In this document: positions 35,831-37,584 of the stretch, in pieces
How the letters are laid out: each line of letters begins with the position of its first letter
Numbering within the stretch: the first letter of the stretch is position 1
From: an uncultured Hormoscilla sp.
GTDB taxonomy: Bacteria; Cyanobacteriota; Cyanobacteriia; Cyanobacteriales; Desertifilaceae
DNA: 64,000 bases
Assembly: GCA_963921275.4 (NCBI GenBank)
Contig: OZ001293.3
Span: 6,528,001-6,592,000 of the forward strand
Reading direction: 5' to 3'
The notes under the pieces: model-generated
What the model was told of the DNA's origin: nothing
The model's database searches: none
The model's input: the letters and a program-made list of their open reading frames with translations, nothing else
Translations under genes and position numbers: made by a program

Positions 35831-37584
35831 GTGCGATTCGTTTCGGACCTAAACCGGCGACGGTGAAAGTCTGAGCTGGTTTCATTAGCCAGACAACTCT
35901 GGTCATCATGGGGGTTAAATTCCCTCTCCCTAGGTGTGGGGGTAACACCGGTCCTTAGTGCTGCGGAGTCACATCGCCGTGGTGCTCCGCTAGGACTTAA
36001 ATGTAGGATAGCTGGCAGCCTAAGCCAGTGACGCCGCTAGGAAAGATGCTCATGGTTAGAACAAGCGAACCTGTGAAAGCCTCGTAATATTAAACCAGCG
36101 GAATAAGGCTTATACGCTGGCCCAAAAGGGAAAAGGTAGTTAGTGTTGGTAGTTCCAAATGACCAGCATCGCGCCCGAAGAACTCCCGGAGTAAAGCAGG
36201 GGCCTAAAAGCATCGTGAAATGAGACCAGGGAACGAAGTAACCTCTCGTGTGCAGTTCGGCTCAACGGGGCCGAACTAGTTAGATGTAGTGCGATTCGTT
36301 CTAGTCTAACGTGGGCAACTACGGAACGCTAGGCCAGGTCCAAACTGGTAACTCTGGTATTCATGGGGGTTAGATTCCCTCTCTCCAAGTGTGGGAGTAA
36401 CACCGGTCCTTAGTGCTGCTGAGTCACATCACGGTGGTGCGGAGCAAGGACTTAAATGTAGGATAGCTAGCAGCCTAAGCTAGTGACGCCGCTAGGAAAG
36501 ATGCTAATGGCTAGAACAAGCGAACCTGTGTACGCCTCGTTATCTAGAACCAGCGAAATAAGGCTTAAAGCGCTGGCCCAAAAGGGAAATGGTAGTTTGT
36601 GCTGGTTCTTGCACTTGGCCAGTATCGCACTCTAAGAACTCCCGGGGTATAGCAGGGGCCTAAAAGCATCGTGAAATGATACTAGGGAACGAAGTAACTT
36701 CTCGTGTGCTGTCTAGATTGGACAAGTTAGATGTAAAGCGCAAGCCGCGAGGGGAGAGATAGCCCGAGAAGCTAATGCCTAGGGTAACGCCTATGGATAT
36801 GATGGGGTGTTCCTCATCCAGCTGACGCGGGTTGGTTAAAGTAGGAAATCTTGGGTAAGAGTATCTCTAAGACGCCGGAGGCCTCTCGAAGGTTGGATGA
36901 CTGGTAAAACAGACTTGGAAATGGTAATACTAAAGGTTATCTGGCAGCGCCGCTTACCAACCAGGAAAGGAGTGAAATCGCATGAGATGAGGGACAAGTG
37001 GAGCAATCCGTAGTAATCCTAGTAGTGACAATGCCCTACTTGCCAGTAGCCGGATGCGGTGAAAGTCGCACGTCCGGTTCCGAATGGGAGGGTTAGGGGG
37101 TGACCCCTAGCTCGACCCCGACTAAGCACAAGCCACGAAGAGGAAGGATGTCCTAAGAAGCCAATGCCCAGGGTAATGCTTGTGGATATGCAGACGTAGG
37201 ACGGATATGGTAAGAAGCCTTTGGTGAAAGTAGCCCTAATATGTTGCAGAACTCAGGAGAAATCCAAGAGTTGGAATATGGACTAGAGTCTCAGCCGGGT
37301 AAAGTTCAGAGCCCCGATAAAGCGAGAATGGGGAACTGTTAGTAGAGAGCGGTTAGAATGGTTTGCTGAACTAACCTCCGCGAACCTTCCGGAGCTGAAA
37401 TCATTAACGGTCCAATAGGATTGACCATAAGGGGTGAAATTGCAAGAGGTAAGGGACAATAGGGGTAACTCTTAGTAATCCTACTGGTGAAAGCAGCTTA
37501 CCAACCAGTAGCCCCAGCGATGAAAGTTGCAAGTCCGGTTGCGAAAGGGAGGGTTTGGAAGTGATTCCGAGCTCGACCCCGACC
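35831..37584 (+). mobile_element. ORF-less group II intron C, outer intron of the twintron (919 nt without the inner intron)
   Basis: GTGCGATTCG..CTCGACCCCGACC; EBS1 TCCAAA vs IBS1 TCTGGA; EBS2 TATTAA vs IBS2 TTAATA. Confidence 0.92.
36289..37123 (+). mobile_element. ORF-less group II intron D, inner intron (835 nt)
   Basis: GTGCGATTCG; canonical DV AGCCGGATGCGGTGAAAGTCGCACGTCCGGTT; ends CGACCCCGACT; splits TAGATGTA|AAGC. Confidence 0.93.

Follow-up and report, generated by a model that had tools for sequence, protein, structure and literature searches.

In the genome of an uncultured Hormoscilla species we found a group II intron, C, that harbors a second, related intron, D, the nesting being precise, on the same strand and of one complete intron in another; by its structure, as read from the sequence, the locus is a real group II twintron. 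It most probably arose by chance, when D, a recently spreading and loosely targeted intron, retrohomed into one sister intron that carried a usable, drifted domain II.

An ORF-less intron nested in an ORF-less intron

Five related ORF-less group II introns (A to E) are present in the 64-kb window, by which we mean the whole stretch of DNA that was analyzed (Table 1). D interrupts C at TAGATGTA|AAGC, in the orientation of C, and comparison of 73 full-length copies with differing flanks defines the ends of D. Removing D leaves an unbroken motif, the form seen in A, B and D itself, and the junction shows neither a missing nor a duplicated base. A reading made earlier from the letters of the window (the sequence-only reading) had described exactly this, two ORF-less introns with D nested on the same strand in C at a motif uninterrupted in A, B and D; the exact ends and the alignment bear it out. 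Its positions for EBS1 and EBS2 of D also held, both loops fitting the consensus of D's genomic flanks, and its proposal of a precise nesting through these loops is supported, although the pairing with C is imperfect: EBS1 forms three Watson-Crick pairs, two G-U/T wobbles and one mismatch with GATGTA, and EBS2 pairs with CTAGTT at 5/6 positions. C is a single-copy intron, with a nearest relative that is 89.7% identical and 76% identity to D. The longest ORF in any of the short introns that we parsed is under 100 codons.

Table 1. Coordinates of the twintron, its host gene and neighboring features (window positions, except where the chromosome is named)
Feature	Position	Strand	Remarks
Outer intron C	35831-37584	+	ORF-less
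C, 5' part: domain I and 5' half of domain II	35831-36288	+	GTGCG start; from sister-intron alignment
EBS2 of C, TATTAA	36088-36093	+	6/6 complementary to 35817-35822 in the 5' flank; placed by alignment
Likely EBS3 of C, A	36134	+	complementary to T at 37585; the aligned column is T in D
EBS1 of C, TCCAAA	36154-36159	+	5/6 pairs with 35825-35830; placed by alignment
Target of D inside C	36276-36288	+	IBS2 CTAGTT 36276-36281; IBS1 GATGTA 36283-36288
Inner intron D	36289-37123	+	835 nt; no ORF; starts GTGCG, ends CCCCGACT
EBS2 of D	36542-36547	+	ATCTAG at 36542; matches consensus of D's genomic flanks
Likely EBS3 of D	36590	+	
EBS1 of D	36610-36615	+	TGCACT at 36610; matches consensus of D's genomic flanks
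Domain V of D	37048-37079	+	AGC triad; Rfam RF00029 46.6 bits; stem fully paired
Likely branch A of D	37115	+	
C, 3' part: 3' half of domain II, domains III-VI	37124-37584	+	
Domain V of C	37510-37540	+	distorted lower stem
Likely branch A of C	37576	+	
Adenosine-deaminase-like gene, 5' part	37585-38270	-	PF00962 E 9.7e-12; 76% identical to residues 1-226 of a 347-aa orthologue
Adenosine-deaminase-like gene, 3' part	35468-35830	-	frameshift near 35708; residues 229-269 and 269-345 in different frames
Intron E (family F5)	38567-39563	+	ORF-less; 9 parsed copies; about 1 kb from the twintron; ends in AY
F3 intron copies	31651-32603; 58598-59550	-; +	
1024-nt element, two inverted copies	15468-16491; 57144-58167		99% alike; 274-codon ORF each
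HerA-like helicase matches	2829-4523	+	include anti-phage HerA models; all below cut-offs
Sister introns with the 27-nt insert (chromosome)	616156, 1140126, 3235034, 3656730, 5171490, 5283190, 5453000, 6037574		

Both introns have group IIB features

C and D both begin with GTGCGATTCG, in agreement with the GUGYG 5' end, and each has a domain V and a domain VI; in C, the AGC triad and domain VI are present and the domain V-VI segment scores below the gathering score of Rfam RF00029. Complementarity of EBS1, EBS2 and EBS3 to the exons is seen for D in its 73 flanks and for C in 5/6 pairs, 6/6 pairs and an A-T pair, respectively. Among the short introns that could be scored, EBS3 is a T paired with an A at position +1 in 193 of 258, and the last intron base forms the gamma-gamma' pair with J2/3 as G-C or A-T in 289 of 291 (G-C in C, A-T in D); the +1 base is an A at 68 of the 73 D copies. 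The gamma-gamma' and EBS3 pairings lend support to the intron boundaries as well. In the six-domain fold, domains II, III, V and VI were supported, and folding the whole of D gave an uninformative z = -0.40. The 3' end consensus of group II introns is AY; D ends in CT and C in CC, as determined for both by comparison with empty sites. This CY end is a family-wide variant, which weakens the claim of a canonical end and not the assignment to group II.

We considered and dropped the idea that C is dead through a broken domain V, since at least 10 of 14 F4 copies, at distinct EBS-like sites, share the change in the 5' arm. Domain V is even more distorted in family F3 (16 copies, including A and B of the window), and C deviates at just 5 of the 352 conserved columns, whereas most representatives deviate at more. 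More generally, four families (F3, F4, F13 and F26) have a distorted domain V, with the terminal loop or the stem altered or shortened, yet are found as near-identical copies at many EBS-matching sites; either such domains work or help is provided in trans.

The insertion splits domain II

The sequence-only reading had placed the insertion in the domain II helix and not in domain IV, and structure modeling supports this. In the RNAalifold consensus computed over 39 subfamily representatives, positions 36242-36253 of C are predicted to pair with 37132-37143 (31 to 39 of the 39 sequences, depending on the position) and 36255-36258 with 36273-36276 (39/39), followed by the domain III hairpin. The insertion point falls on the unpaired strand between those helices, immediately 3' of a motif (36278-36287) that is invariant in 38-39 of the 39 representatives at nine of its ten positions. 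D thus separates the two strands of the domain II basal helix by 835 nt.

A much smaller insertion was observed at the same point: one and the same 27-nt palindrome-like insert occurs, exactly where D sits in C, in eight sister introns that belong to at least three lineages (Table 1). Two introns with this insert are 99.8% identical and occupy different sites, having apparently moved with it; small inserts at the domain II point therefore seem to be tolerated.

D appears to have spread recently and has a loose target

The genome measures 7.03 Mb, of which the host chromosome makes up one 6.88-Mb contig. D is present in 73 full-length copies that share at least 93% identity (72 of them at least 99%), besides 11 partial matches; 20 of the copies, counting the one in C, are identical to it. 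Their flanks follow a loose consensus, near CTAGAT-N-AGTGYA|A, that fits EBS2, EBS1 and EBS3. While 55 of the 73 copies lie outside introns, 15 have intron-like DNA on both sides and three are inserted no more than 20 bases from the start of another intron. One short intron (5244117) holds D about 5 bases from its start, and two long introns (402463 and 6026265) hold it 19 bases from theirs. Counted by copy, the 18/73 that are in introns exceed the 6.9% share of intron-like DNA (p = 1.7e-6); counted by distinct site, 7/59 are in introns, and the excess fades (p = 0.11 against the 6.9% share, 0.30 against 9.2%). The by-copy excess is due to a single hot-spot, in domain I of long RT-bearing introns.

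To score targets we used a simple matrix of 16 positions (10.7 bits), trained on the 57 other distinct D sites, which ignores register shifts and protein contacts. The site in C scores 9.7 bits, against a median of 10.0, and 28 of the 57 other sites score equal or lower. More than 2,000 positions in the genome score as high, and the site in C is therefore an ordinary one for D. The homologous sites in sister introns score lower: 0.0 bits for the commonest form of the family (148 copies), 4.45 for D's own form (108 copies) and 8.35 for the best empty variant (3 copies). The gap between C and the family form comes from two bases, T36277, which is rare (2/39 representatives) and adds a pair with EBS2, and an A at position -15, the base favored in 50 of 73 D flanks. 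We found no empty copy of the exact C variant in the genome; one filled of one available C-type site cannot alone exclude a strong preference for this variant, a point that speaks against a chance origin.

A hot-spot for D in domain I of RT-bearing introns

D occupies a domain I site, at an offset of about 240, in 11 of 13 copies of the long, RT-bearing introns (for example L034, at 2406679-2409916, and the intron at 1056960-1061068 of the chromosome), and at least one of these hosts retains a full-length RT frame. This is the only place where D nests in the manner of a targeted twintron; the domain II site accounts for one of the 73 copies, and a single one of the 344 such sites is filled. 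The hot-spot raises an alternative in which D is specialized for homing into introns, with domain I of the introns that supply its protein as the preferred site and C as a case of spill-over. The 11 copies represent seven haplotypes, most of which also occur among the D copies at other places, a pattern suggesting that D inserted here independently more than once, and a contig from run X4, of a different study, carries D together with the same hot-spot 3' flank. However, the hot-spot scores just 11.1 bits, which is close to the median, its sequence resembles the site in C no further than the general consensus goes, the majority of D copies are not in introns, and some copies could have travelled with their host. 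The pattern was also not found in any of the five relatives searched, none of which showed a near-identical D, findings that weigh little with three of the assemblies in 70-570 pieces; in a wider search, 30 relatives showed no near-identical D among the candidates scored (at most 16 per genome), which is likewise weak. We therefore regard such a specialization as unlikely.

A related scenario, slightly more plausible to us and still improbable, would have D seek domain I of the RT introns that supply its protein and ride on the helper transcript; the family would keep its near-match in domain II below usable strength and so avoid self-invasion, and C would have lost this protection, yielding a natural twintron interrupted in domain II. 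The claim of the sequence-only reading that D parasitizes other introns stands insofar as D enters introns repeatedly; it does not stand for the hosts and the place that were meant, the recurrent hosts being RT-bearing introns, a different class, and the site lying in domain I.

The domain II site is not a regular target, and the host gene does not depend on splicing

The other claim on targeting, that D seeks a site conserved in its own family, had been tied in advance to the location of the other D copies. It fails, both on that count, as most copies lie outside introns, and on the census of the site itself: the domain II motif is uninterrupted 343 times in the genome and intron-filled once. 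Among the 72 parsed copies of D, none hosts another D at this site. A, B and D carry CAAGTT where C has CTAGTT, so that the IBS2 half is not conserved in the family. The IBS1 half is (139 exact uninterrupted 12-mers), and D is inserted directly after a nearly invariant motif, which may make its removal necessary for the outer intron; these points are what remains in favor of a family-wide target with the twintron as a sequentially spliced unit. Against it further stand the apparently tolerated 27-nt insert in eight sister introns, the antisense position in a frameshifted gene, and, weakly, the lack of a match in five of five relatives (three of them assembled in 70-570 pieces). We consider this explanation very improbable.

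The gene that hosts C is an adenosine-deaminase-like gene on the minus strand (Table 1), which C cuts, in antisense, between orthologue residues 226 and 229. An intact orthologue of 347 residues aligns to 38270-37590, to 35829-35707 and then, in another frame, to 35710-35480. Near residue 14 the 5' part of the gene also contains a scrambled segment, and further changes in this part fall at positions that differ in the orthologue. In runs X1 and X2, short-read contigs agree with both flanks at every base and span each outer end of C, which makes a long-read error an unlikely cause of the frameshift; runs X1-X3 and X6 belong to one study and may be the source sample, and hence are no independent support. 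The deaminase gene is the only copy in the genome, and PF00962 was not found in any of four same-genus genomes (93-97% complete). Because the introns lie on the opposite strand and the gene is frameshifted, splicing cannot restore it, and the host has no need of sequential splicing. A promoter scan of 34900-36300 gave one match, on the minus strand and at chance level.

A misassembly that fused two repeat families is a barely credible source of the nesting: no short-read contig bridged C|D at 98% likeness in any of the four runs (36235-36283 being uncovered; the left junction alone was examined closely), but such contigs drop rare repeat variants, so that an uncovered junction proves nothing, and none joined the halves of C without D, while the ends of D are base-exact, the site fits D's consensus, excision restores the family motif, the chromosome is one contig and X1/X2 contigs bridge the outer ends of C.

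Order of events and mobility

A chance retrohoming into C thus remains the most probable origin, and we propose the following order. C would have entered the deaminase gene in antisense, inactivating it, and the gene would have decayed next; D presumably arrived later, in a recent burst, since D is identical to 19 other copies and C has no copy closer than 90%. By then domain II of C had likely drifted into a usable target, into which D retrohomed. Having no protein of its own, D probably borrows the RT of the larger RT-bearing introns. No RT was found in the parsed short introns, and the genome has 20 full-length RT frames, 19 of them in the long class; both of the frames tested pass TIGR04416, and one has as its best solved match 6ME0, which we take to be the T. 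elongatus intron protein. Since the short and long classes are not close relatives, the long introns are an assumed RT donor.

If the plus strand is transcribed, D would be likely to splice first and C to fold only afterwards, because D separates the strands of the domain II helix of C. This order would matter at most for the mobility of C itself, not for the host gene. The 27-nt insert and the plant "zombie" twintrons discussed below make a prior exit of D less than certain. As C and D are homologous, a cross-joining of the 5' end of one with the 3' end of the other is conceivable, though speculative.

The intron load of the genome

The twintron alone matters little, as one of at least 50 nested introns (antisense cases included), situated in a dead gene and on the wrong strand of it. 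It does provide a clean natural control for target recognition, in that two base differences distinguish the filled site from hundreds of unfilled sites, and it could serve directly as a construct for testing whether folding of a group IIB intron is possible with domain II split. The genome-wide load is more striking than the locus itself. An iterated profile search of the genome yielded 502 domain V-VI ends, and the intron catalogue, a motif-and-bracket parse, comprises 389 introns (330 short and 59 long), with 53 unmatched starts and 113 unmatched ends; its 3' ends are one base short for the short class, and it misses hosts with divergent starts, which makes the 50 nested introns a floor. 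Intron-like DNA occupies 7.7% of the chromosome, and the largest families have 143 and 72 parsed copies. The short lineage is amplified in three of four same-genus genomes (26 to 92 motif matches, and one in the fourth). For comparison with the roughly 500 ends found here, one survey, using a different counting method, gives a maximum of 101 introns per genome (PMC8919778), and at least 150 are cited for Arthrospira (PMC4649490).

Several observations lie beside the twintron itself. In eight of nine F6 introns, the 143-copy family is inserted into the RT gene in antisense, always at one position, and in five cases it lies within itself at offset 768. The 1024-nt element of the window is probably an insertion sequence; ORFs of 274 codons were also seen within three short introns elsewhere. 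A 31-kb contig (C3) with 17.6% G+C, against 47% for the genome, is possibly a contaminant.

Relation to known twintrons

The closest parallel is found in Thermosynechococcus elongatus, in which the ORF-less F3 introns TeI3a-e of that species lie in TeI4a-e, and TeI3i lies in the ORF-less TeI3h (Mohr, Ghanem and Lambowitz 2010, PMC2882425). Like C and D, these twintrons are of group IIB with an ORF-less inner intron, and they include a case of ORF-less in ORF-less; as here, identical, recent inner copies occupy diverged outer introns, with retargeting through changes in the EBS (PMC2882425). Mobility with an RT acting in trans was demonstrated there (PMC2882425) and is what we infer for D. The systems differ in their sites, the T. 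elongatus inner family using one conserved domain IV site in six of seven copies (PMC2882425), whereas the domain II site holds 1 of the 73 copies of D; the counterpart for D of that targeted domain IV site is the domain I hot-spot, in introns of another class.

In Trichodesmium erythraeum, the inner intron of the pair Tr.e.I7/I8 is situated in domain I of a IIB2 host, and the 5' end given, GUGCGAUUC, is also the start of C and D (Pfreundt and Hess 2015, PMC4649490). Each of those introns has its own RT, both are inserted in sense into a live gene, and their sequential splicing was demonstrated in vivo (PMC4649490), whereas C and D are both ORF-less, lie in antisense in a broken gene and are known from their sequence. 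In the mitochondrial "zombie" twintrons of the Lycopodiaceae, cox1i1149g2 and sdh3i349g2, a hypermobile intron has landed in its relatives, in one case in domain I, and splicing of the outer intron is possible while the inner one is still in place (Zumkeller, Gerke and Knoop 2020, PMC7049729). Those are plant organelle introns with a dead inner intron (PMC7049729), whereas here the inner intron D looks intact and the outer intron C has a distorted domain V. A limited literature search, which took in parts of PMC4649490, PMC4476101 and PMC6224600, returned no inner intron nested in domain II, and the domain II site is a small variation on published twintrons. Both the nesting of one ORF-less intron in another and nesting within a structural domain have already been published, and D in C adds a further case to a known kind of nested mobile element.
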